A stretch of DNA of 64,000 nucleotides, taken from contig JAOAEL010000001.1 of assembly GCA_026416845.1 (NCBI GenBank), positions 117,940 through 181,939 on the forward strand. Reading direction: 5' to 3'. The notes under the pieces were generated by a model. It was not told where the DNA came from, did not search any database, and worked only from the letters and a program-made list of their open reading frames with translations. Positions 1 to 42,583 of this stretch are shown piece after piece. Source of the DNA: Patescibacteria group bacterium (GTDB lineage: Bacteria; Patescibacteriota; Microgenomatia; UBA8517). The number at the start of each line of letters is the position of its first letter. Position 1 is the first letter of the stretch. Made by a program: the position numbers and the translations under genes.

Positions 1-214
1 AAACATCTTTATCCAATCTCTTAAAAAAATTTTCAATTTCACTTTGACTTGACACATCAAGTTTTTGATAAAAAACTTCTGATTTTTTCTCTTTTGGCTT
101 AGTTTTGTTGTAAGTGGCTATAATTTGCAGTCTTTCTTGCAAAAGCAAATCAATCAAAGCCAATCCTAAAGGACTAGTACCTCCAAAAATTACAACTTTT
201 TTATTTTTGCGCAT
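1..214 (-). CDS. Partial CDS (N-terminus only, continues past the window start): SDR/NAD(P)-binding Rossmann-fold oxidoreductase or epimerase
   Basis: Reverse-complement translation from the ATG at 212-214 gives MRKNKKVVIFGGTSPLGLALIDLL..., a glycine-rich dinucleotide-binding N-terminus (GGxSxxG). It is open to the window edge and overlaps the stop of the next gene by ~14 nt. It is not in the supplied ORF track. Confidence 0.4.
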   Translation of the reverse strand, partial: MRKNKKVVIFGGTSPLGLALIDLLLQERLQIIATYNKTKPKEKKSEVFYQKLDVSSQSEIENFFKRLDKDV

Positions 215-1331
215 AAATTTTTTCAATTAAACTTAAGCTTTTCTTTTTTGCATCTTCCCATGAATACCTGCGAGAAAACAACAAACAAAATTTAACCATC
301 TTTTCATAATTTTTGTCAGACACAAGTGACATAATATACTTCCAAAGATTCTTTCTATCTTTAATATCAACTAAAACTCCCGACTTGCCGTTAACAATCG
401 AATCGCTACAACCTGACACACTATACGCAACAACCGGAGTGCCAGCGGCGGCCGCTTCAATATTTACAAGTCCCCATCCCTCACGAACAGATGGGTTTAC
501 CATAACATGAGCGCGCGACAAAAGATCAAATTTCTTGTGATCGTTAACATACCCAAAATATGTTGTGTTTTTCCCTATATTCAAAACCTTGATTCGCTTT
601 TTTAAATTATCTTTCATTTCAGGCGAAGCCCTGCCAACAATCCAAAATTGCCAATTCGCATCTCTAATATTTATCTCACCAAAAGCTTCCAAAGCATCAA
701 ATATACCTTTATCATAACTTATTGCTCCCAAAAATATAGCCGTTTTTCTCTTTTCCTTAGGAGGAAGCTTTTTTGGAATTTCATCTAGGTTTAAACCATT
801 ATTTATCACAGTAATATTTTTAGAAGGAATGCCACAATTTATTAAATCTTTTCTTGTTGATTCAGAAACCGTCATAAAAGCAATATTTCGATAAAAAAAT
901 TTAAAAATAAAAGGTTCCAAGTAATACCCCAAGAAACCAACTATTTTGTTAAATGGCCATTTCCACTCATTGAGCCACCAAACATCGCGAGCAACTTCGT
1001 GTATAAAAGCAAGCTTTTTGACTTTTACATATAAAGGAGTGAAAAAGGGAATTCCATGAAATTGGTCCACAACTAGATCATAATTTTGATGATTGCCAAA
1101 TATATACCAGAAAAAAGCCGATAAATGCACACCGCCCACACAACTGCCTTTTCTTATTATTTGCACTTGATCTATGAACTCTTCGCGTTTAGCTTTATTA
1201 AAATAAGAGCTAAACCAAGTAACACTATGCCCTTTTGATATCCATCCTTTTGCATGTTCCAACGTAACTTTTTCCGCTCCACCAGCATTGGGATGTTTAG
1301 GATCACGCCAGTTAAGAATCAGTATGTTCAT
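201..1331 (-). CDS. Glycosyltransferase family 4 (GT-B fold, group 1)
   Basis: C-terminal EGWGLVNIEAAAAGTPVVAYSVSGCSDSIVNGKSGVLV is the classic GT4 E-X7-E / nucleotide-sugar-binding motif. Size 376 aa. Confidence 0.8.
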   Translation of the reverse strand: MNILILNWRDPKHPNAGGAEKVTLEHAKGWISKGHSVTWFSSYFNKAKREEFIDQVQIIRKGSCVGGVHLSAFFWYIFGNHQNYDLVVDQFHGIPFFTPLYVKVKKLAFIHEVARDVWWLNEWKWPFNKIVGFLGYYLEPFIFKFFYRNIAFMTVSESTRKDLINCGIPSKNITVINNGLNLDEIPKKLPPKEKRKTAIFLGAISYDKGIFDALEAFGEINIRDANWQFWIVGRASPEMKDNLKKRIKVLNIGKNTTYFGYVNDHKKFDLLSRAHVMVNPSVREGWGLVNIEAAAAGTPVVAYSVSGCSDSIVNGKSGVLVDIKDRKNLWKYIMSLVSDKNYEKMVKFCLLFSRRYSWEDAKKKSLSLIEKIYAQK

Positions 1332-1391
1332 ATATCTTTGGGAAAAATCTAAAAATTACCAATTTGCAACGAAAACTTGATAAAGAAATTG

Positions 1392-2189
1392 CTAAATTGA
1401 CAAATATCTGGGAGTAATCCAATTTTTTCTATTTGAATCATCATAATAACGAATTATTTTCAACCTGTAAAAAACGGCCAAAGTATCCCAAATCATTTTC
1501 AAAACTGTTCTCCAAAACCCTTTGCTAACTATAGTGGAAGTGCCAAACTCCATTTTAAGCTCAACTGGGCCTTCATAAATTTTTCTATAACCTAAAAAAT
1601 GCGAAACAGACAGCAACTCTATATCAAAGGCAAACTCTTTTACTAAAACTCTTGGCAAAACTCTTTTTAACACCTCTCGCTTAAAAAATTTCATTCCAAC
1701 TTGAGTATCTTTGACATCTAATCCAAACAAAACTCTGACAAACATTTGATAACCAAAAGAAAGTATTCTCCTTTGCCAAGGATAAACAACTTTGCTTGCC
1801 TGGTGTCTTTTTGAACCAATTAGAATGTCAGCGTCATACCACTCAAAATGCTCAAGCAAAAGCGGTAAACCATAAGGGTTAAGATCCTTGCCAGCATCTA
1901 TAAATCCGATTATGTCTCCTTTGGCATTTGCCATTCCATAACGCACCGCATGCCCTTTCCCTAAGTTTTTTTCATAACTTAAAACCTTAACAATTCCAGG
2001 AAATTTTTTTTCAAGTTTTTTGGCTTCTTGTTCCGTTTTGTCCAAAACTCCATCTACAACACAAATAATTTCATAATTGTATCTAATTCTGTCTAAAACA
2101 TTTTTAAGAATTAACAAATTTTCCTTGATTGTTTTCTCAGCTTTATAAGCTGGTACGACAATAGAAACAAATCTTCTGCTACTTTTCAT
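1392..2189 (-). CDS. Glycosyltransferase family 2 (GT-A); start taken at the internal Met (MKSSRRF...)
   Basis: SIVVPAYKAEKTIKENL...VVDGVLDKT...IDAGKDL matches the GT2 N-terminal fold with a DxD-like motif. The longer ORF-track start (2237) would overlap the upstream flippase gene by 47 nt; the ATG at 2187-2189 avoids this. Confidence 0.7.
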   Translation of the reverse strand: MKSSRRFVSIVVPAYKAEKTIKENLLILKNVLDRIRYNYEIICVVDGVLDKTEQEAKKLEKKFPGIVKVLSYEKNLGKGHAVRYGMANAKGDIIGFIDAGKDLNPYGLPLLLEHFEWYDADILIGSKRHQASKVVYPWQRRILSFGYQMFVRVLFGLDVKDTQVGMKFFKREVLKRVLPRVLVKEFAFDIELLSVSHFLGYRKIYEGPVELKMEFGTSTIVSKGFWRTVLKMIWDTLAVFYRLKIIRYYDDSNRKNWITPRYLSI

Positions 2190-2190
2190 T

Positions 2191-3477
2191 TTAGAGAAAT
2201 TTATATTTCTTAAGCAAAAAATACAAAACAAATCCAAACGTCATGACACACACACTTATAGTAGACATTACAACTATTTGCAAAATTGATTCATTATACA
2301 ATCGAATTAGAATGTACTGCACAAATGCGGCAATAAGGGGAATTACGACAACTTTTGTATCATCACGAGACAAAAAATAATTTAGCATTAAAGCGCCAAT
2401 TGTATAAACACTTATAAAAATTCCAAATAAATATAGTTGATTAGCCGCAATTAAATATTTATCTCCATATAAAATATTTATAACAAGCTTTGGAAAAAGA
2501 AAATAAATAAATGTAACACCCAAACAAACCAAAACTGTCATGGACATGCTTATCAAAAATATGTCGTTTGAATTTTTTCTCTCTGAATATTTTTTCGCAA
2601 TTAAAGGAAACATTACACTTGCAATTGGAGCAGTTCCAAAAAATATTATCTTTCCCAAAGTAGATAAAGCAGCATAAATTCCAGCGTCAAAAGAGCTCAA
2701 ATGATGTTTTGCCAATAAAACATCTGTTGATATCAATGAATTTACAGAAAAAGTAGAAAAAAGGGTAGGTATAGCATATTTAAAAATTGACAGCTTGTTT
2801 TTTAGTTTGATTTTAAATTTTAAAACTAAAATATTTCTCAAATAATACAACATTACCATTATCTCCAAAACCAACGCTATCAAAAATCCAACCAACGCTC
2901 CTGCCACCTCCCAACCTAAATAAACAGCAATCACGCCAAGTGCTAATCTTGTTATTATCTGGACATTTGTCGAAAGCACATTTGGCAAAAACATTAAAAG
3001 ACCTTGCAATATTGATTTCAAAGCCATTGATACTATAAATAAACCGACAATTGGAGCTACAACATACATAATGCTTTGATGAATATGAAAAAATTTGGAG
3101 GTAAAAGGAGCAAGTGCAACAAGCAAAACGGCAATTCCAACACCTATGAAAATGCTTGCAAGTGAAAACCAGCTAATCACAGCTTTTTGCGCTTGCGCTT
3201 TTGAGGATGAAATAAATTTGACAACAACAATAGAAAGAAAAGACAAAGAAGTTATAACAAGCGAGATAAAAGTTATTGTAGTTGCCAACTCTCCATATTG
3301 ATTAGGATCAAGCATTCTTCCTATTACAAAGTGATATATTGACGCAAAAAAATTAGCAACATTAGAACCAAAAACCATAATCGCGCTACCAGCAAACACC
3401 GGATGAGAAACCGCATCTTTGAAAGAAACAGGCTTGCCAAAAAAACTAAATTTGAAGCTTGAAATTTTCTGCCACAT
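2191..3477 (-). CDS. Wzx-like polysaccharide/oligosaccharide flippase (MOP superfamily)
   Basis: 428 aa, about 12 predicted hydrophobic helices, typical flippase length and composition. Embedded in the GT cluster. Confidence 0.6.
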   Translation of the reverse strand: MWQKISSFKFSFFGKPVSFKDAVSHPVFAGSAIMVFGSNVANFFASIYHFVIGRMLDPNQYGELATTITFISLVITSLSFLSIVVVKFISSSKAQAQKAVISWFSLASIFIGVGIAVLLVALAPFTSKFFHIHQSIMYVVAPIVGLFIVSMALKSILQGLLMFLPNVLSTNVQIITRLALGVIAVYLGWEVAGALVGFLIALVLEIMVMLYYLRNILVLKFKIKLKNKLSIFKYAIPTLFSTFSVNSLISTDVLLAKHHLSSFDAGIYAALSTLGKIIFFGTAPIASVMFPLIAKKYSERKNSNDIFLISMSMTVLVCLGVTFIYFLFPKLVINILYGDKYLIAANQLYLFGIFISVYTIGALMLNYFLSRDDTKVVVIPLIAAFVQYILIRLYNESILQIVVMSTISVCVMTFGFVLYFLLKKYKFL

Positions 3478-4614
3478 TTAAGATATCCAATAACCTCTTG
3501 TAAAAAGCATCACTGTAAGACCTAAAATTGCAAAAAACGAAATAAACATTACATAAACTATACTTTTATTAACTTTGGAAAAATAAGTTGAATAAACAAT
3601 AAAAACCGGAAACGCAGTCAGAACATACCTTGGCAAAGATGAAAAACTTCCCGAGAAAGTCGATAATACAAAAATTAATGCCGAATAAAAAGCGTAAACA
3701 AACTTTTTCTGGATAAATAAAAGAACAATGCCAAAAATAAAAAATATTGCGCTAAACAACTCCAGAAAAACAGTATAAACAAAAGGTAAATAATTTAAAT
3801 CCAAATTTGGTATTATCTTAAAAAAATATCTATAAAGAATCTGCGGGAATAAAATAAAAGTGCCGGCTCTTTGCTCGCCAAAAACTTCTCCCAAATTTTT
3901 GGCAAACAAAAACGGATCTCCAAAATATAAAAACAAATATGCCATATAAACAAACAATCCCAAAGGCGCGATAAACAAACCAAAAAGAAATCTAGCATTA
4001 AATCTTTGTTTTGATAAAAGAAATTCAACCAGCAAAACCGGTATTAATGCTATTCCAGTTATTCTTGTTGCTGTTGACAAGGCACAGAAAATTCCAGCTA
4101 GAAACCACCTTTTTTTCCTAATAAAATAAAATGCCCAAACGGAAAACAACAAAAAAAGAGATTCCGTATAAAAGCTTGCAAAATAAAAAGAGGTTGGAAA
4201 AAGCAAAATAAAAAACAAAAATAACAATTGGTTTACATTTCTGAAATCCAATTTAATTATTTTTATTATCCCATACAAAGCAAAAATCAAAGAAAAATAG
4301 GAAACAAAAAGTCCGATATAAGCCAAATTCTCAAATCTATCACCTGTTAAATTATTCAAAAAAGAAATAATGAAAGGATATAAAGGAAAGAAAAAATGCT
4401 TTAGATTTTGATAGCCATTAGAAGCAATTGACAGGTAATGTTCCCCATCAAAATTAAGCCAAGCATAAGGGTATGGGTTATTTAAGTAATTAGATATTCC
4501 TCCACCCAAAAAATCATACCGCAAAGCAAAAATAAAAATGCCAAAAAACAAAAACATGTTGATAGCAAATAACCACAAAAAAACAATAAAAAATATTTTC
4601 AGAAACATAATCAT
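3478..4614 (-). CDS. Multi-pass membrane protein, probable GT-C fold mannosyltransferase-like (PIG-V/Gpi18-like pattern)
   Basis: Highly hydrophobic 378 aa. WLNFDGEHYLSIASNGY resembles the conserved N-terminal loop of the GPI-mannosyltransferase-2-like family. Assignment is tentative. Confidence 0.4.
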   Translation of the reverse strand: MIMFLKIFFIVFLWLFAINMFLFFGIFIFALRYDFLGGGISNYLNNPYPYAWLNFDGEHYLSIASNGYQNLKHFFFPLYPFIISFLNNLTGDRFENLAYIGLFVSYFSLIFALYGIIKIIKLDFRNVNQLLFLFFILLFPTSFYFASFYTESLFLLFSVWAFYFIRKKRWFLAGIFCALSTATRITGIALIPVLLVEFLLSKQRFNARFLFGLFIAPLGLFVYMAYLFLYFGDPFLFAKNLGEVFGEQRAGTFILFPQILYRYFFKIIPNLDLNYLPFVYTVFLELFSAIFFIFGIVLLFIQKKFVYAFYSALIFVLSTFSGSFSSLPRYVLTAFPVFIVYSTYFSKVNKSIVYVMFISFFAILGLTVMLFTRGYWIS

Positions 4615-5744
4615 TTTTGGATCAAGTTGTACACTTTGAGAGTGTCAAGCGCTGTTTTCCCCCAAGAATATTTTTTGGATATTTTTAAGCCTTCTTTGAT
4701 CATATTTGAACGAAGCAATGAATTGCAAAGAACTTCAGAGAGCTTACTCACAAGATCATCCACGTCATGTGGATCAAAATAAACAGCTGACTTACCGGCA
4801 ACTTCCACAAGCGCTTGAGTTTTGGCGCAGACCACAGGAGTGCCAACCGACATAGCTTCTGCAACAGGCATTCCAAAACCTTCATAATAAGAAGGTTGAC
4901 AATAAACAGTCGCTAGATTGTATATGCAATTTAGCATTTTGTCCTCCACATATCCTAATCTATAAACATTTTTGCTTTTAGAAAATTCTTCAATAAGATT
5001 CTTCAAATGAGCAATCTCGGGATGGTAGGTATTAAAAACTCTACGCAAGTGATCTCTAAAACCTTTGATACTTCCATAAATCGCCTGCTTGTCAACTTCA
5101 GCCGCGGCTTTTCCGCATATAACAAGCGGCATATCAATTTTTTGGCAAGCTTTAACCAATGAAACTAAATTTTTGTTGTAATTAACATCGCCAACATATA
5201 AAACAAAACGCGCGGGCAAGTTTAATTTCTTTCTTATTTTAGGCAACTCTAATTTGGATATCTTTTTAATAAAAGATCTACAAGATAAATGGGTAACATG
5301 AACTTTTTGAGGATCAATATCTGTAAATCGTATAATATCCTTTTTCGTAGTTTCTGAATTTGCAATAATCGCTTTAGCTTTCTTTAGAATCTTTTTTTGA
5401 ATTTGCCAATTAATATTTCCTCTTATTCCTCCCGGATAATTCCTAGGGTATATCAAAGGAATCATATCATGAATAGTTACCACAGAATTTTCCGGAAGTC
5501 TAAAAGGCAGTGACCTTTCAAAAATACTAAACGCCGTAAAATGAACCACATCATAATCAGTGAAAATCAACCTCGAATTTCTTGAAAAATCAAAGGCATT
5601 GACATTTAAATTGTAAGCTTTCGATTGCAATTTTTTTAAGTTGTTTATCAGCTCTTTGGCATAAGTCCCAACACCTCTAACGCTATGTCCAGATAAAGTC
5701 GGTCCAGAATCAATTGCGACTCTCATAAGAAAAAAATCATTCAA
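4611..5744 (-). CDS. Glycosyltransferase family 4
   Basis: EGFGMPVAEAMSVGTPVVCAKTQALVEVAGKSAVYF is a GT4 signature. 4-nt overlap with its neighbours. Confidence 0.8.
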   Translation of the reverse strand: MNDFFLMRVAIDSGPTLSGHSVRGVGTYAKELINNLKKLQSKAYNLNVNAFDFSRNSRLIFTDYDVVHFTAFSIFERSLPFRLPENSVVTIHDMIPLIYPRNYPGGIRGNINWQIQKKILKKAKAIIANSETTKKDIIRFTDIDPQKVHVTHLSCRSFIKKISKLELPKIRKKLNLPARFVLYVGDVNYNKNLVSLVKACQKIDMPLVICGKAAAEVDKQAIYGSIKGFRDHLRRVFNTYHPEIAHLKNLIEEFSKSKNVYRLGYVEDKMLNCIYNLATVYCQPSYYEGFGMPVAEAMSVGTPVVCAKTQALVEVAGKSAVYFDPHDVDDLVSKLSEVLCNSLLRSNMIKEGLKISKKYSWGKTALDTLKVYNLIQK

Positions 5745-6652
5745 AATTTTTTCAACTCAAGATCCTTTTTCACTTCTGAATAATATTTAAAATACGCAAT
5801 GGGAAAATGCAAAGCTGAAAAGAAAGACCATATAAATCCTCTCATACCATCCCTAAACCCCAAATGTCTAAAATACAATTTCACAAAAAACAAAGTTGGC
5901 TTAACAAAAGAATAATATAACAAGTTCCACAAGCTGACACTAACATTTTGCGACTTAAATTTCATCGCAGTCAAATCTGTGTATCTGTTTGCGCGATACA
6001 AATACCTTTCAAAAGTTGGAGAATCATAATGCAAAAGGTCAAAATAACACCAACTTACCCTGCCATTTACCTTCATTTGTTCATGAACTGATTCTCCGGG
6101 CAAATAAGCCTTGCCTTTTTTAAACAATCTAATCACACCATCAGGATAGACACCAGCATAAGTAATAGGTTTACCTAAAAATATGTTTTTTCTTGGCAAA
6201 TAATAGGCAACAACCTCGCCATCAGAATCGCGTCTCCCGTCTCGTTTGTTAATATTTTCCTGATGTTGGTAAAACAAACGGTCTTTATATTTTTTCAACT
6301 TTGAATTAATGTGTTTTGCAATAAACTGATCATGTTTGCCATCCAAAATACTTTTAATCTCCCACGCCAACTCTTCAGAGACACACTCATCAGCGTCAAG
6401 TTGCAAAATCCAATCTCCACAAGCCTTTTTGTTTGCTTTTTCTTTGGTTATATGAAAGATAGGTTCATGATCAGTATCAAAAACTTTTGCGCCAAAAGAT
6501 TTTGCTATTTTAACTGTATCATCGTTGGAATGTTCATCGAAAATCACTATCTCATCAGCAATATCTTTGACAGAATTAAGGCATCTTGCAATATTTGCTT
6601 CCTCGTTTTTGGTAGCCAAAGTCACAGAGAGCTTAGTTTTTCTTTTTCCCAT
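5741..6652 (-). CDS. Glycosyltransferase family 2
   Basis: LSVTLATKNEEANIARCLNSVKDIADEIVIFDEHSNDDT ... LQLDADE (DxD-type) is a GT2-like N-terminus. Confidence 0.75.
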   Translation of the reverse strand: MGKRKTKLSVTLATKNEEANIARCLNSVKDIADEIVIFDEHSNDDTVKIAKSFGAKVFDTDHEPIFHITKEKANKKACGDWILQLDADECVSEELAWEIKSILDGKHDQFIAKHINSKLKKYKDRLFYQHQENINKRDGRRDSDGEVVAYYLPRKNIFLGKPITYAGVYPDGVIRLFKKGKAYLPGESVHEQMKVNGRVSWCYFDLLHYDSPTFERYLYRANRYTDLTAMKFKSQNVSVSLWNLLYYSFVKPTLFFVKLYFRHLGFRDGMRGFIWSFFSALHFPIAYFKYYSEVKKDLELKKF

Positions 6653-7928
6653 TTTTTAGTATGAGCCTTGCAACTTTTATACCTAATTCTATCGCATAAT
6701 TAGTGCCTCTGTCGTATGGATAAACCTGTTGCATATTGCACAAATAAACTCCGGCAATCGGAGTTTCAAACGAAGGAATAAATTTAGAATAATTAACAGA
6801 AACAATAGGCTGAGCAAATTTTGCTTTAAAAACATATGCCTTTTTTATCCAACTCTTTGAAAAACCTTGATTTATCTTTTTCAAATGCGGCAAAAATTCG
6901 GCTATTAATTCCTCGGCCGATTTATTAAAATAAACATGATCATCCGGTAAATAATTGCCTATATAAACAATATGTTCATTGCCATAATTTTTTTTGTCCA
7001 TAAAGTTGGTGTGTTGCACAATCGCCAGAAAAGGCATTGATAAATCGTTTATATTTAACCAATAAGTATTATCTTCCAAAAAAGACTTGTTTAGTCTTAA
7101 AACAAGATTAATAGCCCCCAAACTTCTTGACTTTGTGAATTTCTTTACATATGAACTTGGCAATCCTTCAACAATTTTAACAAAATAAGCATTTGGTAAA
7201 GTACAAACAACTTTATCAAACACATAAGATGAGCCGTCTGAAGTTTCTAAAATCAAGCCTCTTTCTCGTTTTTTTATTTGAATCACCTTACTTTTATAAT
7301 TAATTGAGACTTCATACTTTTGTGTCATATGTTTTTGCAAATTGTAAGCAAAATTCAAAAAGCCTCCTTCTGGATACCCTAAACTGGCGCTTCTTTTATG
7401 AATTCTCGCCCAAAACCAAGTAGCTGAAATCAATTTTGCATAGTTGCCAAATTTTCCAATAAAAAGTGGACCCCACAAAACATTCCAAGAATTAATTCCG
7501 GCAGTTTGCACAATAAAATCATATGCTGTTCTTCCTTCTAAATTCCTCCAGAATGGAGAAAGCTTAAGATAAGAAAGCATAAAGGCAGTCTTTACTCGGT
7601 CAAGCAAAGGTAATTGGTTAAACCGCATCAAAGTAAACGGCGAATCTATTTGATAAATTTTCCCATTGTAATAAGTCGAGGTTTTAGGCCTTATAAAAAA
7701 AACCCGATGCCCTATATCTTGAGCTAAATTAAGCGCAGCGTTATCAGACCTAAACCAATGATGATAATGATATTCAAGCGTCCAGTTCCAATTTTTCTCT
7801 TTAAAACCAAGTGCCAAACCACCCGGCTTGTCTTCTGCTTCAAATACAACCACTTCAACACCATTTTTAGCCAATTCGTAAGCGCAAGCCAACCCGCCAA
7901 AACCAGCACCAATGATCGCAACTTTCAT
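6633..7928 (-). CDS. FAD/NAD(P)-binding oxidoreductase (amine-oxidase / protoporphyrinogen-oxidase-like; UDP-galactopyranose-mutase-like not excluded)
   Basis: N-terminal MKVAIIGAGFGGLACAYELAKNGVEVVVFEAEDKPGG is a GxGxxG dinucleotide-binding motif followed by the acidic residue, with a C-terminal GVYLCN... flavoprotein-like tail. Confidence 0.65.
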   Translation of the reverse strand: MKVAIIGAGFGGLACAYELAKNGVEVVVFEAEDKPGGLALGFKEKNWNWTLEYHYHHWFRSDNAALNLAQDIGHRVFFIRPKTSTYYNGKIYQIDSPFTLMRFNQLPLLDRVKTAFMLSYLKLSPFWRNLEGRTAYDFIVQTAGINSWNVLWGPLFIGKFGNYAKLISATWFWARIHKRSASLGYPEGGFLNFAYNLQKHMTQKYEVSINYKSKVIQIKKRERGLILETSDGSSYVFDKVVCTLPNAYFVKIVEGLPSSYVKKFTKSRSLGAINLVLRLNKSFLEDNTYWLNINDLSMPFLAIVQHTNFMDKKNYGNEHIVYIGNYLPDDHVYFNKSAEELIAEFLPHLKKINQGFSKSWIKKAYVFKAKFAQPIVSVNYSKFIPSFETPIAGVYLCNMQQVYPYDRGTNYAIELGIKVARLILKNGKKKN

Positions 7929-9650: not shown

Positions 9651-9660
9651 CTTCTTATGC

Positions 9661-34230: not shown

Positions 34231-35766
34231 CTAATCAGTATAACCCCACATAGTGTCAGTTATGTTCTCGTTTGGTCCTTTGCACCTATCTAATACACCA
34301 TCTTGATCGTACCTATCATAATCCGGATATATTAAACCTAAAGAACCAAAATTCACATCAGTTGGAAATATATCCTTTAAAGGAAAAACTATAGTGTACA
34401 CAGGGACATCTTTACTAGGTTTAGTAACATGCATTTTTTCTAACCAAAAAAGATAACGATATCCTAAATTGTAACCCGGATCTGTTATATAAGACACCGC
34501 CACACAAGGATAACCTTTCTCATACGCGTCTTTTTTTATCTCCTTCACCAAAGCTAGCTTATGAACATATTCAATACCAGCAGGTTTGAAACTGTATAAC
34601 CTATTTATGTTATGAAAAGCAAAAATTAAAGCAAGAATTAATCCCAAAATTCGGAACTTTTTACTTAGCCAAACATAATTGAATAAAAGAACAATAATAA
34701 AAATCCACGGAAAAACCAGACCATTAAGATAGTATTCTGAAACTGGCTTGGAATAAAGCGAAAAAAATAAAATCAAAAACAAATTCCAAAGCAAAAAAAT
34801 TATTATTAGACTTTTATCCAAAACCTTTTTTCTAAACAAATAAACGCTTGCGAATACCAAAAATAGCGGTAGTAAATAATAAAAGGAAGAATCAGGATGC
34901 CAAACCAATGTTGTTATGTTCTGAGCTGAAATATGCAAAACTCTATAAAATTGAGCCAAACCTTCATACGTAGATCCTTGATCAGCGCTAAAAGCATTTA
35001 CCAAAGATTTTATTTGAATAAAATTATGACGAAACTCAAAAATAAAAAACGGAGCAGAAGTCAGCAAAAAAGAAAGAAAGCCAATAAAAATCTCTTTCAA
35101 TCTTGGTTTAATACGTGCCAAAATAATAGCAACTGCAATCAAAGGCAACAAAAGAGCTAGAGAAACATGAATATGCCATATTAAACCAACTAAAATGCCA
35201 ACAACAAAAAACCCTTGCAAATGTTTGCCGTCAATTATTTTTTTAATACCAAAAAAATACCAAATACACCATAACAACATAGGAGACGTAGGGAAAACCC
35301 CTCGATCGTTGCTAACGGCAAAGTATGAAATTGAATAAAAAAACGAAGCCCACAAACCAACACTTTTATTAAATAAATTATTAAAAACATAATAAATGCT
35401 ATAAATTGTCAGAAGTCCAATTAATGTCATCATCCATATCCCGCCCACTGGACTCATATTGAAAAAAATATAAAAAGGCACCAACAAATAATAAAAAAGG
35501 GGGCCAATAAAAACTCCTTGTGTGGAAGTTTCTTGACCAATTAACCTAAGATGCTTGTTTTCAACAATATCTTTGATTATCCACCCAGCTAAATCTTGAT
35601 CATGCCCATGATTTAGCCACTGCACACTTTGATAAGTTCTTAAATGCAATCCAATTAAAAGAATTATTAGTAAAACCCAGTTTTGCTTTAAGAAAAACAA
35701 AAAATTTTCACTGAAATTTCTAAACATGTCAAATTCTCTCTCTTCTCTGGACAAATATGCCACCAA
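34231..35766 (-). CDS. GT-C membrane glycosyltransferase candidate (PMT_2-like, D-[EQ]-G-R-D-A subfamily); true start probably at an internal Met
   Basis: NHGHDQDLAGWIIKD...LIGQETSTQGVFIGPLFYYLLVPF is shared with the 35729 and 37854 genes. The overlap with the upstream gene suggests a later start. Confidence 0.5.
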   Translation of the reverse strand: MVAYLSREEREFDMFRNFSENFLFFLKQNWVLLIILLIGLHLRTYQSVQWLNHGHDQDLAGWIIKDIVENKHLRLIGQETSTQGVFIGPLFYYLLVPFYIFFNMSPVGGIWMMTLIGLLTIYSIYYVFNNLFNKSVGLWASFFYSISYFAVSNDRGVFPTSPMLLWCIWYFFGIKKIIDGKHLQGFFVVGILVGLIWHIHVSLALLLPLIAVAIILARIKPRLKEIFIGFLSFLLTSAPFFIFEFRHNFIQIKSLVNAFSADQGSTYEGLAQFYRVLHISAQNITTLVWHPDSSFYYLLPLFLVFASVYLFRKKVLDKSLIIIFLLWNLFLILFFSLYSKPVSEYYLNGLVFPWIFIIVLLFNYVWLSKKFRILGLILALIFAFHNINRLYSFKPAGIEYVHKLALVKEIKKDAYEKGYPCVAVSYITDPGYNLGYRYLFWLEKMHVTKPSKDVPVYTIVFPLKDIFPTDVNFGSLGLIYPDYDRYDQDGVLDRCKGPNENITDTMWGYTD

Positions 35767-37261
35767 ATCTAGACTCTTCTAAGATTTTGGTGTTTCCTTG
35801 ATACTTCAAAAGCCAATTTTCTAATCTTTCAGGATGAGGTGGGTCAACTTCATAAAGCACATATAAAACAGATTGCTTTTCTTTCTTGTCATATCCACAA
35901 AGACTTTTGCCACATCGTCTTTCGCCAATCCACAAAAACAAATAATCATAAGCATAAGGTATTACAGGTGGCACATAGACATCTATGTTATAACTTTTGA
36001 TATTGTTTTTATAAGCATTATCATATATCCAATTTACAGCTTGTTTTTGGTTACCTAAAGTAATATGAGTCGGCCCGTCAACACCGGCATTCAAAAAATT
36101 TCTAAGAAGAATTGAATTCTGATACAGAAAACCAATAAAGAAAAGAGATACCACTAATTTGCCCATAAAAGAAGACTTAAACAAAACAGCAAGACCAATT
36201 GCAAAAAAAAGAATCATCGGCAAATAGTAGCCAGTTAAATAATAATCATAAATATTGCCATAATTTCCTTGAAAAAGGATATAAAAGAAAGCAGGCACAG
36301 CAAAAAAAATTCCAAAAATTATAAATATATTTTTGTTTAGACTATTTCTGAAATACAATAAAGTCAAAAAAGACAATAAAGAAATTGCATGAGAATATTT
36401 GGTAAGACCCAAGAATAGTTTTGACTGGAAAACATCCCAAAAATAAGCTAATCTTATATTCAACACATCCCAAAAATTTAGTCTGAAACTTTTTTGTTCA
36501 ACAATTACCTTGTAGAAATTATTAAAAAGCAAATTGTCATGTCTGAAATTAAACAGTATCTGAGGCAACAAAGTTAAAAAAAAGATAAAAAAACTAATCA
36601 AGAATGTTTTAGGACTAGGAAAATTTGATTTAAATACAAGACTGAAAATTATAACAATAGGTATATAAAACACTCCGCTTGCAGATTCAAATTGCATGGA
36701 TGCTCCAACCAAAAAAGCGACAACAGGCCACAAAATATGACTGTTTTTATTGCCTTTGGCAATCTCCCACAACGCCCAAAGCAATAAAACACTGGTAAGT
36801 AAAATCGGGGTTGGATTGGAAACCCATCTGCCTGCAAGAACAATGTAATAAGATATGGCACATAATAAAACCGCAAAAAGCCCGGCAGTTCTAGAATGCA
36901 TTTCTTTCCCCAAAACATAAACGACCAAAAGAGCCAAAGTAGAAATGAAAGCCAAAAAATATGCCACAAATATAGGATCTCCTCTTCCCAGAAGATAAAA
37001 TGGCGCAATTAAGTAATAGTATAAGGGACCTAAAAAAATGCCAGCCAAACCTGTCACAGGACCTACTAAAAACAACTTCCCTTCATTCCAAAATCTCCAA
37101 ATAACCAAAGCGTCACGACCTTGATCGTAATAAAACCCTATCAGATCCTCTGCTCTATACACTCTAAGAAAAAAAGCAATTATTAGTAAAAGTAATAAAA
37201 ATAAGTAAGCGAGTTTATTTTGTTTTATTTCCAAGAAGATGCTGTTAAAAACTTTTAACAT
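35729..37261 (-). CDS. GT-C membrane glycosyltransferase candidate (PMT_2-like, DQGRDA subfamily)
   Basis: YYDQGRDALVIWRF...LVGPVTGLAGIFLGPLYYYLIAPF. 510 aa and TM-rich. Confidence 0.5.
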   Translation of the reverse strand: MLKVFNSIFLEIKQNKLAYLFLLLLLIIAFFLRVYRAEDLIGFYYDQGRDALVIWRFWNEGKLFLVGPVTGLAGIFLGPLYYYLIAPFYLLGRGDPIFVAYFLAFISTLALLVVYVLGKEMHSRTAGLFAVLLCAISYYIVLAGRWVSNPTPILLTSVLLLWALWEIAKGNKNSHILWPVVAFLVGASMQFESASGVFYIPIVIIFSLVFKSNFPSPKTFLISFFIFFLTLLPQILFNFRHDNLLFNNFYKVIVEQKSFRLNFWDVLNIRLAYFWDVFQSKLFLGLTKYSHAISLLSFLTLLYFRNSLNKNIFIIFGIFFAVPAFFYILFQGNYGNIYDYYLTGYYLPMILFFAIGLAVLFKSSFMGKLVVSLFFIGFLYQNSILLRNFLNAGVDGPTHITLGNQKQAVNWIYDNAYKNNIKSYNIDVYVPPVIPYAYDYLFLWIGERRCGKSLCGYDKKEKQSVLYVLYEVDPPHPERLENWLLKYQGNTKILEESRFGGIFVQRRERI

Positions 37262-37263
37262 TC

Positions 37264-37851
37264 TTATAACCCTAAAAGTTGCACTAGCTTTTTATAAACT
37301 TCATATGTGGCATAAGCATCAGTTAATGCTCCATGAACATCATCAACTTTTATTTCTAACTCTCTTGCTATGGTTCGCAAGGACAATTTACTAGGTTTAT
37401 TTCTATTCTTAAAATAAATGTAAGCCAAAGAAATCACATCCAAAAAATGGTAATCAAATTTTGGTTTGATTCTTGCTTTTTCAAAAGAAAGGCCCAAAAA
37501 AGACCAATCAAATGCGATATTCCATCCAATTAACATAGCTTTATCAGCTAGATCATTTAATATATTTAAAGCCGTAACAATATCTACACTATCTTTCCAA
37601 TCCTCATCTCTGAACTTTATTATTTCAAGAGCGACAGGATCAGCGTCTTTTAGCTTAGTTGGTGCAACTTTTATGCTTTTCTTTGTCAAAACCTGCAAGC
37701 TTTTTTGTTCAACCACAACCAAACCTATCTCTAAAACCTCATGAGTCAATACATCTAAACCGCTCATTTCCAAATCTATAAAAACCAGCTTCCTGTCTCT
37801 AAAATCAAATTTCTCCTTCTCTTCACCCATGCTCATAAAAGACTTTGACAT
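37264..37851 (-). CDS. DEDDh 3'-5' exonuclease (DnaQ/oligoribonuclease-like)
   Basis: Exo I FIDLEMSGLD..EVLEIG, Exo II LIGWNIAFDWSFL and Exo III HGALTDAYATYEVY motifs are all present in the canonical order. Confidence 0.75.
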   Translation of the reverse strand: MSKSFMSMGEEKEKFDFRDRKLVFIDLEMSGLDVLTHEVLEIGLVVVEQKSLQVLTKKSIKVAPTKLKDADPVALEIIKFRDEDWKDSVDIVTALNILNDLADKAMLIGWNIAFDWSFLGLSFEKARIKPKFDYHFLDVISLAYIYFKNRNKPSKLSLRTIARELEIKVDDVHGALTDAYATYEVYKKLVQLLGL

Positions 37852-37853: not shown

Positions 37854-39431
37854 TTAGTTATTATAATGAACTAATTTATAAAGTGTTACACCAGATACAT
37901 CCCATTCAGACTCCACTTTGCTCCAACCAAAATTTGCAATTTCAGCTTTCGCATTGGTTGTCGGATTGCATTTGTCTTTTGGCAATTCGCAAACCACAAA
38001 AAGTTGCTTGGCTATTGTGTATTCCAGTCGTAATGGATCGATTTTTAACAAATTGGAATTTTCTTTCTCCAAAAAATACTGATATGCTCCTTCATAATTC
38101 CTCTCCGCAATTACAGCAAAATTAAACGGTTTGCCTTGAGATTCACTGATAATTTTGTTAGCAACCTCCATGGATCTTTGCAATTGTTTATTGGGATGAT
38201 ATTTTAGAGGAGTTTGTGAGAAATGCAAATAAAAAATGTAAAAAATCAAGATTGCTGACACAAAAAAACTAATTGGCAAGACTTTCTTAAGATCAAAAAC
38301 CAACATCGAAAACAAAATAAAAGGGGCAGTAAACAAAAAGCCAAAATAATGATCGTAAATTTCTTGTTTGTAATTACCTAGGCCAATAAAAGCAAAAATA
38401 AGCCATAAACAAACTAATAAATAAGGGGATTCCAAAATAAACTTCTTTTTTGATTTGATTAATAAAATCACTCCAGACAAAACTAAAAACCATGAAACTA
38501 TTAGTCCGCCAGTTTTATCTGTAGCCGCGATCAAGCGGGAATTTAAATTTTCAAAAAGCGGCCAAAATTTTGGCAAGGCATTCCATGGTTTTGCGGAAAC
38601 AGTTTCCTGGCGATTAGAGAAAAAGGTTGCAATTGCTGAAAAGTTTCGCCATCCATGTCTGGCATCAAAAATAAAAAGAGGACTCATCAAAAAAGCAAAT
38701 ATTAAAAACCCAATTATTGAATTTTTAAGAAACAATTTCAACTTAAACTTGTCTTTTTTCGCTTTAAAAAAGGTAAACAAAAAATACAATAAGATGGTGG
38801 GCAAAAGCAACAAACCAAGATAATGAGACTGCAACACAAAAGCAAAACTAATTCCTAAAACAATAAGCCACTTAAAGTCTAAATTTTTATAAATTTTCCA
38901 TATTGAATATACGCACAACAAAGAAAAAAACGGCATTATATTAGGATTCCACGAAGATCTGTTATAGATAATTACAATTGGAGATGTACTATATAAAAAA
39001 GCCGCCAGCAAAGCGACATAATTGGTTTGTCCCTTTTTACAAGGAAAAACTTCCTTAACAAACAACCAAATTAAAAATGCTGTTACGACACCAAAAAGTG
39101 CAACCATCACAGAAGGTCCAACAGGAGAAAAATTAAATATCAACAAAAATGGCGCAATTAGATAATAATACAAAGGCCCCAAATACATATTGCCAATGGA
39201 AGTTCCTGGTCCTATCAAAATAAGGTCAAAATTTACAAGCAAATTTCTGACAATAATAGCGTCTCGTCCTTCATCCCCCAAAAAAGTCATATATTCAGAT
39301 ATTCTATAAAGGCGTAAAAAACCACCTATAAATAAAATAAAAATCAAAGAGAAATTTTCCTGAGGATTTTTGTAAAACCAATTTTTTATTATGCAAACAA
39401 AACTAAAAAGAGCTACCTTAGCTTTCTCCAT
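37854..39431 (-). CDS. GT-C membrane glycosyltransferase candidate (PMT_2-like, DEGRDA subfamily)
   Basis: FLGDEGRDAIIVRNL...LIGPGTSIGNMYLGPLYYYLIAPF. 525 aa. Confidence 0.5.
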   Translation of the reverse strand: MEKAKVALFSFVCIIKNWFYKNPQENFSLIFILFIGGFLRLYRISEYMTFLGDEGRDAIIVRNLLVNFDLILIGPGTSIGNMYLGPLYYYLIAPFLLIFNFSPVGPSVMVALFGVVTAFLIWLFVKEVFPCKKGQTNYVALLAAFLYSTSPIVIIYNRSSWNPNIMPFFSLLCVYSIWKIYKNLDFKWLIVLGISFAFVLQSHYLGLLLLPTILLYFLFTFFKAKKDKFKLKLFLKNSIIGFLIFAFLMSPLFIFDARHGWRNFSAIATFFSNRQETVSAKPWNALPKFWPLFENLNSRLIAATDKTGGLIVSWFLVLSGVILLIKSKKKFILESPYLLVCLWLIFAFIGLGNYKQEIYDHYFGFLFTAPFILFSMLVFDLKKVLPISFFVSAILIFYIFYLHFSQTPLKYHPNKQLQRSMEVANKIISESQGKPFNFAVIAERNYEGAYQYFLEKENSNLLKIDPLRLEYTIAKQLFVVCELPKDKCNPTTNAKAEIANFGWSKVESEWDVSGVTLYKLVHYNN

Positions 39432-40132
39432 AATCTAAAAAGATCCACAAAACTTTTGATAATCACATTTAAATTGGCGCCTGTTCCTACACCTTTTTTA
39501 CGGGGATAATGACTAACTGGAATTTCTACTATTTTAAACTTGTTCTTTTTTGCTTTTATTAAAAATTCGCTTGATATGAACGCTCCTCTTTCGGACTCTA
39601 ATTTGGGTATTTCTTCAATTACTTTTTTACTAATTAATTTAAATCCACAATCAATATCTCTTACTTTCAATCCAAAAAGCAAATAAACCATAGTTTCCCA
39701 TAAAAAACTATTTACTTTTCTATAAAATGGGACTTGCCGCTTGCGATAATATCCAATAACAAGATCAGCATTTGTTTTTTTTTGAGTTGCGATGAATTTA
39801 TCTATCTCAGAAAAATCAAATTGTCCATCCGCATCTGTAAAGGCTATCCAAGAATATTTTGCATTGTAAAAGCCACTCTTAAGAGCGGCGCCATAACCCC
39901 TGTTTTTAGAGTGATTTATAACTTTAACTCTTTTATCATCGCTGGCAAGCTTTTTGGCAATTGCAAGAGTTTTATCTTTAGAGCCATCATTAATTATCAG
40001 AATTTCCCATTTAGAAGCAATGTCATTTAAAACTTTAACAGCTTTCAATACAGTCTCTTTGATATTTCCTTCTTCATTGTAGGCTGGAAAAAACACAGAA
40101 ATTTCATCAATAAGAGAATTTTTATTTTTCAT
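39413..40132 (-). CDS. GT2 polyprenol-phosphate sugar transferase-like
   Basis: ISVFFPAYNEEGNIKETVLKAVKVL...IINDGSKDKT...FTDADGQ, 239 aa. Confidence 0.75.
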   Translation of the reverse strand: MKNKNSLIDEISVFFPAYNEEGNIKETVLKAVKVLNDIASKWEILIINDGSKDKTLAIAKKLASDDKRVKVINHSKNRGYGAALKSGFYNAKYSWIAFTDADGQFDFSEIDKFIATQKKTNADLVIGYYRKRQVPFYRKVNSFLWETMVYLLFGLKVRDIDCGFKLISKKVIEEIPKLESERGAFISSEFLIKAKKNKFKIVEIPVSHYPRKKGVGTGANLNVIIKSFVDLFRLWRKLR

Positions 40133-40213: not shown

Positions 40214-41374
40214 ATGGCAAAAAGCTTTTTGAAAACAATATCTCTTATTGTCATTTTTTCTCTTGCGCCTACATTTTTACTGTGGCTGCCTTTTTTCTTA
40301 AGAATAGAAAACGTATTTGGTATACCTCTCCCCAAAGATGGCATGGCAACAGTTGTGGCTAATTATGATGGACCTTTGTACATCGTCGTATCTAAAACTT
40401 TTTACGATCCTCAAGCTGTGGGCGAATTTCCATTCACACTTCCATCTGAATACTATGCAGCGCATTTTCCTTTATTTCCTTTATTAATCAAAATTTTTTC
40501 CTCGTTCACCAATTCCATATACGCAATGCTTATAGCAACCATTTTATTCAGTATTATAGGTACTTATTATTTCTATTTACTTGCCAAAGATATTGTCGGA
40601 GAAAAAAAGGCACTATGGCTTGCGTTTGTATTTAGTATTTTCCCAGCAAGATGGTTAATTGTAAGATCTGTAGGCGCCGCAGAGCCAATGTTTTTAGCGG
40701 CAATTACAGCGTCATTGTACTACTTTAGAAGAGAAAATTACTGGATGGCAGGAACATGGGGAGCGTTAGCGCAACTAACAAAATCTCCCGGAATCCTGCT
40801 TTTTATAGGATTTTGCATTTCAATAATCATAGCACATTTCAGAAAAACAGCTTTTGCAAGCATACTAGAAGCATTCTCATTAAAAAGTTTGATAAAAACT
40901 ATCCCACTACTTCTAATCCCTATCGCACTAGTAGGAGTTTTTTGCCTGTACTACTTTAGAATGGGAAACTTTTTTGCTTACTTTAATTCTGGAGACAACA
41001 TACATTTGTTTTTCCCACCTTTTCAAGTCTTTAACTATTCACAAGCATGGGTAGGCACATTTTGGCTTGAAGAAATAATATTTTTGTATCTCTTGGGACT
41101 TCTTGGATTTTTCAAGCTAGTTTCAATGAAAGAAGAAAAATTATATTGCTTTTATGCAGTTTTTTTAATCTCACTTTTTTTTGTCGCACACAGAGACATA
41201 CTTAGATATGGGCTTCCGATCGCTCCATTGGCTTTAATTGCCTTTCATGAAACTCTTACCAAAAAAGAATTTAAAATAATATTTGGAATTTTGTTACTGC
41301 CAATATATCTTTACGCGCTCACATACATATCTCAAAACACAATGCCAATCACAAACTGGAGTAAGCTGATATAA
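40214..41374 (+). CDS. Polytopic membrane protein (GT-C-like candidate); it is the only plus-strand gene inside the glycosylation block
   Basis: 386 aa with about 11 TM helices. VANYDGPLYIVVSKTFYDP loop. Divergently oriented from the 39413 GT2. Confidence 0.4.
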   Translation: MAKSFLKTISLIVIFSLAPTFLLWLPFFLRIENVFGIPLPKDGMATVVANYDGPLYIVVSKTFYDPQAVGEFPFTLPSEYYAAHFPLFPLLIKIFSSFTNSIYAMLIATILFSIIGTYYFYLLAKDIVGEKKALWLAFVFSIFPARWLIVRSVGAAEPMFLAAITASLYYFRRENYWMAGTWGALAQLTKSPGILLFIGFCISIIIAHFRKTAFASILEAFSLKSLIKTIPLLLIPIALVGVFCLYYFRMGNFFAYFNSGDNIHLFFPPFQVFNYSQAWVGTFWLEEIIFLYLLGLLGFFKLVSMKEEKLYCFYAVFLISLFFVAHRDILRYGLPIAPLALIAFHETLTKKEFKIIFGILLLPIYLYALTYISQNTMPITNWSKLI

Positions 41375-41386
41375 ATTTTTTATTCT

Positions 41387-42583
41387 TTAAGAAGACAAAA
41401 AGTTTGAATTTTTGTTCTTAATTATATTCCTTATCCTCTCAACAAAAGGCACTTTCCAAGTTCTCCATATCACCGCATTGTACATAAAATAGTTATAAGG
41501 CATGATGAAAAACAAAATTATAAACGGAAGCAATAATTGCCTATACTGACTACCAAAAATAAAAACACCCAAAGAACCAACTGTCGTTTGAATCAGTAAA
41601 GCGCCCATAGAAGTCAAGTTAAACTGAAAAAACTTAAGCGCCCATTTATGAAATCCGCGAATTCTTTCTTTCCTAAAAGTCCAAAAATTATTTAACAAGA
41701 AATTGTTTATTATTGCCATCTCAACAGCTAATGCCCAAATCACTGGTTCAGGCAAAAAATCCTCATACCTGCCAAAAAACCACAATCCAGTGGCATTGAC
41801 CAGATAACCAACAAATCCAACAGTCCCAAATTTTACGAATCTCTTTTTGTCCAAAATTCCAAGAATAATTGCAAGCTTGAATGTTGAGATCATTTCTTTG
41901 GCATCAAATTTTGACTTCTCTTCTGTTCTTGGGGCAAACTCAAGCGGAATCTCAACAACATTTTTGGCAAGCTTTATACTTTGATACAACAAATCAACTT
42001 TATAAGCAAAACGTTTCAGTTCCCTAATATTCTCCAAATCTATTTTATCTAAAACCCCATTTACTTTAGTTAATCTAAAACCTGTTGTTAAATCATGTAT
42101 TTTAAAATTAAGCAAAGCCAGTCTGATAAAGAGATTTCCAAAATAGCTCACAATTCTTCTTGAAATCGCCCACTCTTTTGGAATAGATCCTCCTTTGATA
42201 TATCTTGAACCTATCACATAATCTGCACCTTTGAGATATGCTTCAACCATAGGAATCACAAATCGTGGCGGATGTTGGAAATCCGAATCCATTTCTATAA
42301 CAGCATCAGCTTTTAAGTTTTCCATTGCATATCTAAATCCCCAAATATAAGCCCAACCCAAGCCTCTTTTTTCCGGCTCAAGCAATAAATGCAAGTTTTT
42401 ATAACCTTTAAGCAATTTTTTGACATACTGGCCAGTGCCATCTGGAGAATTTCCATCTACTATAAGAAGGTGCATCTGAGCATTTTTAATTTTTGGAAAT
42501 ACATCATCCAAAAGGGCAGGAATCATCCTCTTGATATTTGCCAATTCATTGTAAGTTGGCATCACAATTACAATTTTGTCCAT
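41387..42583 (-). CDS. GT2 polyprenol-phosphate glycosyltransferase fused to a C-terminal GtrA-like 4-TM domain
   Basis: VIVMPTYNELANIKRMIPAL...IVDGNSPDGT...EMDSDFQH (GT2) followed by C-terminal GTVGFVGYLVNATGLWFF...NNFWTFR (GtrA-type). Confidence 0.75.
   Translation of the reverse strand: MDKIVIVMPTYNELANIKRMIPALLDDVFPKIKNAQMHLLIVDGNSPDGTGQYVKKLLKGYKNLHLLLEPEKRGLGWAYIWGFRYAMENLKADAVIEMDSDFQHPPRFVIPMVEAYLKGADYVIGSRYIKGGSIPKEWAISRRIVSYFGNLFIRLALLNFKIHDLTTGFRLTKVNGVLDKIDLENIRELKRFAYKVDLLYQSIKLAKNVVEIPLEFAPRTEEKSKFDAKEMISTFKLAIILGILDKKRFVKFGTVGFVGYLVNATGLWFFGRYEDFLPEPVIWALAVEMAIINNFLLNNFWTFRKERIRGFHKWALKFFQFNLTSMGALLIQTTVGSLGVFIFGSQYRQLLLPFIILFFIMPYNYFMYNAVIWRTWKVPFVERIRNIIKNKNSNFLSS

Follow-up and report, generated by a model that had tools for sequence, protein, structure and literature searches.

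Introduction

In the established scheme of extracellular glycosylation, a GT-A glycosyltransferase (GT) loads a sugar onto polyprenyl phosphate, a GtrA- or Wzx-type flippase turns the product outwards and a GT-C glycosyltransferase adds the sugar outside, and the organisms tabulated for such systems use one to three GT-A/GT-C pairs each (PMC8035078). Here we describe a 64,000-nucleotide stretch (hereafter the window) of contig JAOAEL010000001.1 from a Patescibacteria group bacterium, in which positions 201-42583 form a dense block of glycosylation genes encoding, among others, 16 polytopic proteins whose assignment to the GT-C type is supported by sequence comparison and predicted folds. We favour, with reasonable but not strong confidence, the interpretation that this block is a conserved envelope-glycan assembly line of Microgenomates and a very large 'multi-component transmembrane glycosylation system'. 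The host is a Microgenomates member of the Patescibacteria, or Candidate Phyla Radiation (CPR), near Candidatus Woesebacteria.

Results

Organisation of the glycosyltransferase block

Genes are named by their lower window coordinate, 26870 for instance denoting 26870-28573. As the initial annotation had reported, the block lies on one strand with a single exception: of its 33 open reading frames (ORFs), 32 are on the minus strand and one (40214-41374) is on the plus strand. Neighbouring genes are mostly separated by 0-27 bp or overlap by 4-47 bp, the widest gaps being 108, 65 and 60 bp, with an even GC content of 30-35% and a negative GC skew throughout. Pfam and hydropathy counts gave 16 GT-C-type polytopic proteins, 10 GT2 and 3 GT4 enzymes and 2 Polysacc_synt (Wzx) flippases, the same tally as proposed before, together with two genes that had gone unmentioned, a flavin adenine dinucleotide (FAD)-dependent oxidoreductase (6633) and a DEDDh exonuclease (37264). 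GT-C genes make up ~60% of the block, less than the two thirds first estimated.

Misassembly of repeats, which the initial annotation had flagged as a possible source of the block, can be ruled out, since its polytopic paralogues share only ~25-35% protein identity, the longest DNA repeat is 81 nt (62-79% identity, coding for the common DE-motif region) and an independently deposited contig (L001) shows identical gene order with 94-100% protein identity. At the left end a dehydrogenase-like ORF on the same strand overlaps the stop of 201-1331, starting at 214, 12 bp before that stop, and runs off the window, so the block extends past this border. Promoter and terminator scans gave the same counts as shuffled sequence and no operon boundaries were therefore drawn, and Rfam and tRNA scans of the window returned no matches.

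GT-C identity of the polytopic proteins

A Kyte-Doolittle scan found ~8-13 hydrophobic segments in each of the 16 polytopic proteins, a crude count in which some overlapping segments were scored twice. Nine of them exceed the Pfam gathering score, seven with PMT_2 (40214, 37854, 35729, 34231, 31902, 17356 and 11378), one with GT87 (16130) and one with YfhO (20768). Three more (13084, 9661 and 7956) fall just under the PMT_2 threshold and are full-length paralogues of 17356 and 11378 (E 1e-52 to 1e-87), with which they make up family A; two of its five members thus pass the threshold and three lie just below it, and their orthologues are labelled ArnT family or GT39 by the sources. Family B comprises 37854, 35729 and 34231.

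The remaining four (30081, 14771, 3478 and 26870) have no Pfam match of their own. Gene 30081 aligns with the YfhO gene 20768 (hhalign 99.5%, E 2e-23), and 24 of its 30 orthologues match Pfam PTPS_related and six YfhO, while 14771 is placed in GT87 through 16130 only (BLASTP E 3.5e-13, hhalign 99.7%). Likewise, 3478 aligns with 40214 (hhalign 98%), its orthologues matching the PIG-V family Mannosyl_trans2 in ten of 31 cases and PMT_2 in ten of 31. The initial annotation had distinguished six DE-motif and three DEGRDA-type proteins, and these classes hold: an Asp-Glu (DE) motif follows the first transmembrane (TM) helix in six proteins, including 31902 (D39-E40), the pair being invariant in family A, and family B carries GDEGRDA, YDQGRDA and HDQDLAG. 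Both YfhO-like proteins have DD, and 26870 has an invariant H43-D44. Homology and charge distribution would place the loop with the acidic motif on the extracytoplasmic side.

AlphaFold2 models of 7956 and 26870 both consist of a helical bundle and a C-terminal alpha/beta domain, and fold comparison found structural similarity to solved GT-C enzymes. For the family-A model ArnT ranks first (21.4, with AglB at 17.2), and both ArnT and ALG12 stand above the protein O-mannosyltransferases (PMTs). The family-A profile had no match at E <= 1 among PDB sequences, and Pfam scans of the ten PMT/PMT_2-matching proteins detected no MIR domain. It had been suggested as a check that the polytopic proteins might prove to be transporters; this was rejected, as hidden Markov model (HMM), profile and fold evidence supports a GT-C type for every polytopic protein except the two Wzx flippases, at a strength that varies from protein to protein.

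Conservation of gene order in Microgenomates

We searched one genome per species with the family-A profile, which gave more than 579 relatives, and annotated the best 80 loci against the window proteins; these loci were chosen for a relative of 9661, with no selection for neighbouring genes. Nearly all belong to Microgenomates-group Patescibacteria (Woese-, Shapiro-, Collier-, Gottesman-, Levy-, Davies-, Ames-, Blackburn- and Chisholmbacteria), and a near-identical contig among the relatives is named 'Patescibacteria group bacterium SKYG105'. Exact matches to window proteins bear the NCBI locus tags N2558_00570 and N2558_00640. A number of records with a Microgenomates-type cluster (L003-L006, L013, L024, L025 and others), some of them chromosomes of 0.6-0.8 Mb with the same gene content, are titled 'uncultured Gammaproteobacteria' or 'Pseudomonadales', which probably reflects placeholder names or taxonomic errors.

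The recurring order is 17356, 14771, 13084, (30081-like), 11378, 9661, 7956, GT2 5741, GT4 4611, 3478, Wzx 2191, GT2 1392 and GT4 201. The step 9661-7956 is kept in 72 of the 80 loci and 11378-9661-7956 in 64, while the five-gene core 11378-9661-7956-GT2 5741-GT4 4611 is found in 53; the 42 loci with full 21-kb coverage each hold 5-10 GT-C-like ORFs (median 8). Other Microgenomates have a separate orthologue for each of the four tandem genes 7956-14763, arranged as in the window. Window paralogues tend to have orthologues of their own, at a median identity of 36-41% against 30-33% to the next paralogue, and separation is clear for 11378 and 13084, for which ~80% of hits reach 1.5 times the score of the second-best paralogue or more. 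The second Wzx cassette (201-6652) is collinear in many loci, and what varies between genomes is the FAD oxidoreductase, the YfhO gene and extra family-A copies.

The other half of the block was followed in five contexts of 26870 homologues (L083, L084, L085, a JGI contig and CP065002.1). All five show the order PMT_2, PMT_2, GT2, PMT_2, a protein of 540-626 amino acids, Wzx, the 26870 homologue, three GT2 and a GT4, with one of the three GT2 in L084 lacking a Pfam match. Three of the contexts go on, like the window, with YfhO, two GT2 and PMT_2, whereas YfhO is missing after the GT4 in the JGI contig and two PMT_2-type genes come next in CP065002.1. The YfhO gene 20768 occupies the same position in L083, L084, L085 and L015. 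In CP065002.1, a closed 1.27-Mb Woesebacteria genome, the genes from 35729 to 23116 are collinear at 43-59% identity, including an orthologue of 33455 at the same position (59%) and the cassette of three GT2 and one GT4 at 23116-26804 (49-59%). Collinearity of both halves across relatives indicates an ancient, lineage-wide supercluster, and at ~42 kb the block amounts to ~3-5% of genomes of 0.8-1.3 Mb.

A gene family with a predicted STT3-like fold

Gene 26870 matches no Pfam or NCBIfam family, and it finds no PDB chain even at E <= 10, whether searched as a single sequence or as a 46-sequence profile. It is nonetheless widespread, with 1196 homologues and 1590 clusters at 50% identity in a representative library; among the 120 homologues listed most are 50-57% identical and two reach 72-73%, and every name displayed is 'hypothetical protein'. 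Few genes of the block are better conserved, its top homologues being ~55% identical, as for 7956.

The AlphaFold2 model of 26870 (pLDDT 86, pTM 0.88) retrieved STT3 chains as its ten best Foldseek matches (E ~3e-9, TM score 0.50-0.58), followed by DPY19, AglB, PglB and AftA, and the overall predicted fold, including the C-terminal globular domain, agrees with that of STT3, AglB and PglB. STT3-like and ArnT-like folds can be told apart in this way, because the same method ranks ArnT above AglB for the family-A model. However, none of the 46 aligned family members has the WWDYG motif (searched as W[WFY]D[YFW]G); an invariant L-P-x-R-P-P-A-K follows their last TM helix in its place.

A Wzx gene stands immediately upstream of the 26870 homologue in all five contexts (1 bp away in the window), and in one relative of 1639 amino acids (P0281) Wzx, a ~450-residue secreted domain of no known family and the 26870 module are fused; together these favour action directly after the flipping step. 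About a quarter of the best 150 family representatives (P0241, P0245 and P0259 for example) are 1000-1160 residues long and have a ~450-residue N-terminal secreted domain, for which we found no Pfam family other than one weak DUF3863 match and no homologue in the window. We had considered that the ~1,000-residue relatives might be Wzx fusions, but most have this secreted domain instead and Wzx is present only in P0281. From its model and context, 26870 probably works like an oligosaccharyltransferase, with en-bloc transfer of a flipped lipid-diphosphate glycan, while not being an STT3 member by sequence.

Donor-synthase-like enzymes, cassettes and accessory genes

The initial annotation had named three GT2 enzymes as polyprenol-phosphate-sugar synthase-like. 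Three to four do resemble such synthases, but their NCBIfam matches all fall under the curated cut-offs: the best are PgfS, AglJ and PpgS for 41387, ArnC (E 2.6e-21), PgfS, AglJ, dolichyl-P-hexose transferase and PpgS for 39413, and PgfS, ArnC, dolichyl-P-hexose transferase and PpgS for 33455. Gene 41387 is a candidate polyprenyl-phosphate-sugar synthase with its own flippase-like module. In two cases, 39413/37854 (which overlap) and 33455/31902, a GT-C gene follows directly on a donor-synthase-like GT2, an arrangement known from other GT-A/GT-C pairs. Soluble GT2 and GT4 genes accompany each Wzx together with a single GT-C, which is 26870 beside Wzx 28575 and the PIG-V-like 3478 beside Wzx 2191. 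Below cut-off, 40214 matches the NCBIfam AZOBR_p60025 glycopolymer-formation family (E 9e-10), and 24964 (TIGR01556) and 19061 give weak rhamnosyltransferase matches.

The FAD oxidoreductase 6633 lies between the family-A genes and the second Wzx cassette. It was considered as a DprE1-like or UDP-galactopyranose-mutase-like enzyme and rejected as either; since it matches only amine-oxidase/PRK07233 families and is absent from most related loci (present in only 3 of the 80), we treat it as an accessory gene, which could modify a sugar or the lipid carrier. The exonuclease gene has a counterpart in the same place in the 73%-identical L083 (710-1327) and none in three of the four other contexts, the JGI contig being cut there; it has no apparent part in glycosylation and is probably a passenger. 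Coordinates and evidence for all features are collected in Table 1.

Table 1. Features of the block and of its flanks, in window coordinates
Feature	Position	Strand	Evidence
Short-chain dehydrogenase/epimerase-like ORF (putative), start	1-214	-	direct reading MRKNKKVVIFGGTSPLGLALIDLL..., Rossmann-type glycine motif GGTSPLG
Second Wzx cassette: GT4	201-1331	-	Pfam
Second Wzx cassette: GT2	1392-2237	-	Pfam
Second Wzx cassette: Wzx	2191-3477	-	Pfam
Second Wzx cassette: PIG-V-like GT-C	3478-4614	-	orthologue Pfam matches
Second Wzx cassette: GT4	4611-5744	-	Pfam
Second Wzx cassette: GT2	5741-6652	-	Pfam
FAD-dependent oxidoreductase, amine-oxidase fold	6633-7928	-	Amino_oxidase 109 bits; PRK07233 ('hypothetical protein') 401 bits (cut-off 252)
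Four tandem family-A GT-C paralogues	7956-9650, 9661-11412, 11378-13087, 13084-14763	-	Pfam, paralogy
Two GT87-type (PimE-like) GT-C	14771-16021, 16130-17359	-	16130: GT87 30.9 bits (cut-off 25)
GT-C family A, ArnT-like, DE motif	17356-19068	-	PMT_2 35.9 bits; paralogue of the four genes 7956-14763
Two GT2	19875-20771, 19061-19867	-	GT2 82.6 and 98.9 bits
YfhO-family GT-C, 783 aa	20768-23119	-	YfhO 70.9 bits (cut-off 28.5)
GT4	23116-24150	-	Pfam
Three GT2	24131-24967, 24964-25899, 25908-26804	-	Pfam
GT-C, STT3/AglB-like predicted fold	26870-28573	-	AlphaFold2 model, Foldseek
Wzx-type flippase	28575-30065	-	Polysacc_synt_3 170.7 bits; 1 bp upstream of 26870
YfhO/PTPS_related-type GT-C, 604 aa	30081-31895	-	hhalign, orthologue Pfam matches
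GT-C, DE after TM1	31902-33452	-	PMT_2 39.1 bits; hhalign 97% to families A and B
Soluble GT2, polyprenyl-phosphate-sugar-synthase-like	33455-34213	-	GT2 95.8 bits; 2 bp upstream of GT-C 31902 (second GT-A/GT-C pair)
GT-C family B	34231-35766	-	PMT_2 31.3 bits
GT-C family B	35729-37261	-	PMT_2 43.0 bits
DEDDh 3'-5' exonuclease (RNase_T) between two GT-C genes	37264-37851	-	RNase_T 71.4 bits
GT-C family B, GDEGRDA after TM1	37854-39431	-	PMT_2 45.5 bits; paralogue of 34231, 35729
Soluble GT2, polyprenyl-phosphate-sugar-synthase-like	39413-40132	-	GT2 118 bits; no TM segment
Short GT-C, 386 aa	40214-41374	+	PMT_2 26.8 bits (cut-off 26.1); hhalign 98% to 3478 family
GT2 with C-terminal GtrA/DPMS TM domain, first gene of the block	41387-42583	-	Glycos_transf_2 93.2 bits, GtrA_DPMS_TM 46.3 (cut-off 26.1)
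Polysaccharide deacetylase	46435-47277	-	Pfam Polysacc_deac_1
rmlD, rmlC, rmlB, rmlA (dTDP-rhamnose)	47385-50513	-	Pfam RmlD_sub_bind, dTDP_sugar_isom, GDP_Man_Dehyd/Epimerase, NTP_transferase
Second sugar-1-phosphate nucleotidyltransferase	51281-52177	+	Pfam NTP_transferase

Flanking genes

A sortase gene (59130-59708, minus strand) lies in the right flank and fits a single-membrane, wall-anchoring envelope. Adjoining it (59130-63221, minus strand) are two signal-peptide proteins of 383 and 782 residues, each with a terminal hydrophobic segment and charged tail and no Pfam match, in which a simple pattern search found no canonical LPXTG. These are likely wall-anchored surface proteins, and because of this likely surface location we regard them as candidate acceptors for glycosylation.

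Directly adjoining the block on the plus strand (42717-45690) are an HlyD-like adaptor, a MacB-type ABC ATPase and a permease, although a single membrane is expected, followed by TrmD at 45758-46414. Further genes at 52497-58311 encode secreted proteins, namely a CAP-domain protein, two camelysin/TasA-like proteins (Peptidase_M73) with an N-terminus of the SAFFSDTETS type, a lamin-tail-domain protein and an RTX calcium-binding repeat protein.

Discussion

The block encodes together GT-A synthase-like enzymes, flippase elements (the GtrA domain and Wzx) and GT-C enzymes, as multi-component systems do, the synthase activity being read from below-cut-off NCBIfam matches. Because these elements of the established scheme are all present, we propose a route in which glycans are built, flipped, extended and transferred; its donors, order of action, acceptor and product are what we infer from gene content, GT-C identity, conserved order and predicted folds. 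The GT2 and GT4 enzymes of the cassettes 23116-26804 and 201-6652 would build two oligosaccharides on polyprenyl diphosphate at the inner membrane face, supplied in part with dTDP-rhamnose from the nearby rml genes, and the two Wzx proteins would move both units outside. The DPM/GtrB/ArnC-like GT2 enzymes (41387, 39413, 33455 and perhaps 1392) would meanwhile make polyprenyl-monophosphate sugars, which would be flipped, possibly through the GtrA-like domain of 41387. Outside, a fixed series of GT-C enzymes, comprising five of family A, three or four of family B, two GT87, two YfhO-like and two PIG-V/PMT_2-like members, would act with one particular sugar or linkage per enzyme; fixed order and one-to-one orthology argue that each paralogue has its own conserved step. 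Finally, the STT3-like 26870 beside Wzx would transfer the flipped diphosphate-linked glycan en bloc to an acceptor that may be a protein of the surface or an anchor in the wall or membrane.

Several observations weigh against this assembly-line model. The 64-kb window yielded no initiating phosphoglycosyltransferase (Bac_transf or MraY/WecA type), so the start of the first step is missing there. As the NCBIfam matches of the GT2 enzymes all lie under curated cut-offs, the donor-synthase roles rest on resemblance, and the putative synthases 39413 and 33455 have no membrane segment. A fixed order is compatible with sequential action without proving it, and the paralogues could instead be subunits of hetero-oligomers or serve different acceptors. 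The 80 loci were selected for a relative of 9661, and the counts accordingly describe genomes with this family and not all CPR. More generally, what supports the pathway is gene content, folds and conservation.

Other explanations were weighed against the same data. The block might serve mainly for protein O-glycosylation, its PMT/ArnT-like GT-C enzymes moving sugars from polyprenyl phosphate onto Ser/Thr of secreted proteins such as pilins, S-layer proteins or sortase substrates, and its paralogues serving different protein substrates or pairing as hetero-oligomers in the manner of yeast Pmt1-Pmt2. We think this unlikely as the main function, given that no MIR domain was detected, that ArnT and ALG12 outrank the PMTs in fold and that the Wzx cassettes would be left with no role, while direct protein O-glycosylation is possible for some members. 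A little less likely still, in our view, is a set of independent decoration modules in which each GT-A/GT-C pair adds a side-chain sugar to a conventional wall polymer (teichoic-acid-like or a rhamnan), as in Listeria, Lactococcus and Streptococcus, the modules having accumulated for surface variation against phages or hosts. The GT2/GT-C pairs and the YfhO and PMT_2 types agree with the Firmicutes systems (PMC8035078), rmlABCD lies nearby, two GT2 have rhamnosyltransferase-like matches, and some members (the FAD oxidoreductase, YfhO and extra family-A copies) vary. However, only 3-4 candidate donor synthases face 16 GT-C enzymes, no backbone polymer genes (TagF/TarL-type, ABC exporter or LCP ligase) were seen in the window, and the one-to-one orthology and order of the core, kept at 35-55% orthologue identity, are the opposite of a fast-changing locus.

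The suspicion that the block is an artefact, with polytopic proteins that are transporters or repeated genes that are misassembled, could draw on the four proteins with no Pfam match and the three below the Pfam threshold, and we consider it extremely improbable in the light of the HMM, profile, fold and repeat evidence. A lipopolysaccharide (LPS) O-antigen locus was likewise rejected, since the flank contains a sortase and none of Wzy, WaaL and Wzz was found in the window. Returning to the assembly line, its most far-reaching version is that the 26870 family is a previously unrecognised class of bacterial oligosaccharyltransferases, moving the Wzx-flipped, GT-C-extended glycan en bloc onto surface proteins. 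We put this forward as a speculative proposal that is more probably wrong than right by a wide measure; if true, a single operon-like block would give Microgenomates a general protein-glycosylation pathway, organised after the fashion of the lipid-linked-oligosaccharide route in archaea and eukaryotes.

An attached life on other cells is assumed for CPR bacteria, and contact with the host presumably takes place at their surface. That 3-5% of the DNA is spent on the block, with its order kept at 35-55% orthologue identity, suggests that the surface glycan matters to these cells and has a defined structure. A 2024 overview of Patescibacteria biology leaves glycans unmentioned (PMC11665869), and in a literature search covering part of the journals we found no account of a GT-C supercluster or an oligosaccharyltransferase-like enzyme in CPR. 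The block offers a concrete gene set for asking what covers CPR cells, its GT-C paralogues are a natural series for specificity studies, and the STT3-shaped family is open to direct assay in glyco-engineered E. coli.

Among known systems, Wzx/Wzy loci for O-antigen or capsule also have a Wzx flanked by soluble GT2 and GT4 enzymes, with rmlABCD nearby, but differ in that a GT-C gene adjoins Wzx in each cassette of the block. The initial annotation had argued for an elaborate wall glycopolymer or protein O-glycosylation system and against a plain O-antigen or capsule locus, and the latter point fits the lack of Wzy, Wzz and an initiating phosphoglycosyltransferase: Wzy_C, Wzz, Bac_transf and Glycos_transf_4 were not found in the scanned window ORFs of at least 150 amino acids (52 of the 53 listed, or 53 with the TrmD-like ORF counted) and may lie elsewhere in the 212-kb source contig, and no WaaL ligase was found in the window. 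The GT-C series resembles, by analogy, the ALG (ALG3/9/12/6/8/10) and PIG (PIG-V/M/B) enzymes of the endoplasmic reticulum (ER) lumen. In contrast to the STT3/AglB enzymes of N-glycosylation in the ER and archaea, 26870 has no detectable STT3 sequence homology and no WWDYG, and its host is a bacterium with a sortase.

Mycobacterial arabinogalactan, lipomannan and lipoarabinomannan (EmbA-C, AftA-D, MptA-C and PimE) offer a further analogy, as there too many specialised GT-C enzymes extend one envelope glycan outside from polyprenyl-monophosphate donors. The block shares GT87 (PimE-type) members with them, and AftA, AftB, AftD and EmbA are among the fold matches, although no DprE1-type epimerase was detected (6633 being of the amine-oxidase type) and profile searches of PDB showed no Emb or Aft sequence similarity. 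The mycobacterial Emb, Aft, Mpt and PimE genes are spread over a 4-Mb genome, whereas the GT-C genes here form one block in a genome of ~1 Mb.

Another close likeness is to the Gram-positive CsbB/GtcA/YfhO, GtlA/GtlB, GacI-J-K-L and CsdAB/CD/EF systems (PMC8035078), with which the block has in common GT2/GT-C pairs, a GtrA domain, Wzx, YfhO and PMT_2. The mechanism class is already known; what appear to be new are a block with as many as 16 GT-C genes, the variety of GT-C types (ArnT/PMT_2, YfhO, GT87, PIG-V-like and STT3-like), its retention across a CPR lineage and the STT3-shaped family with no annotation. Compared with the Gram-positive multi-component systems, the block differs in packing its 16 GT-C enzymes into 42 kb, in adding GT87, PIG-V-like and STT3-like types, and in having a core order that is lineage-wide where theirs is serotype-variable.

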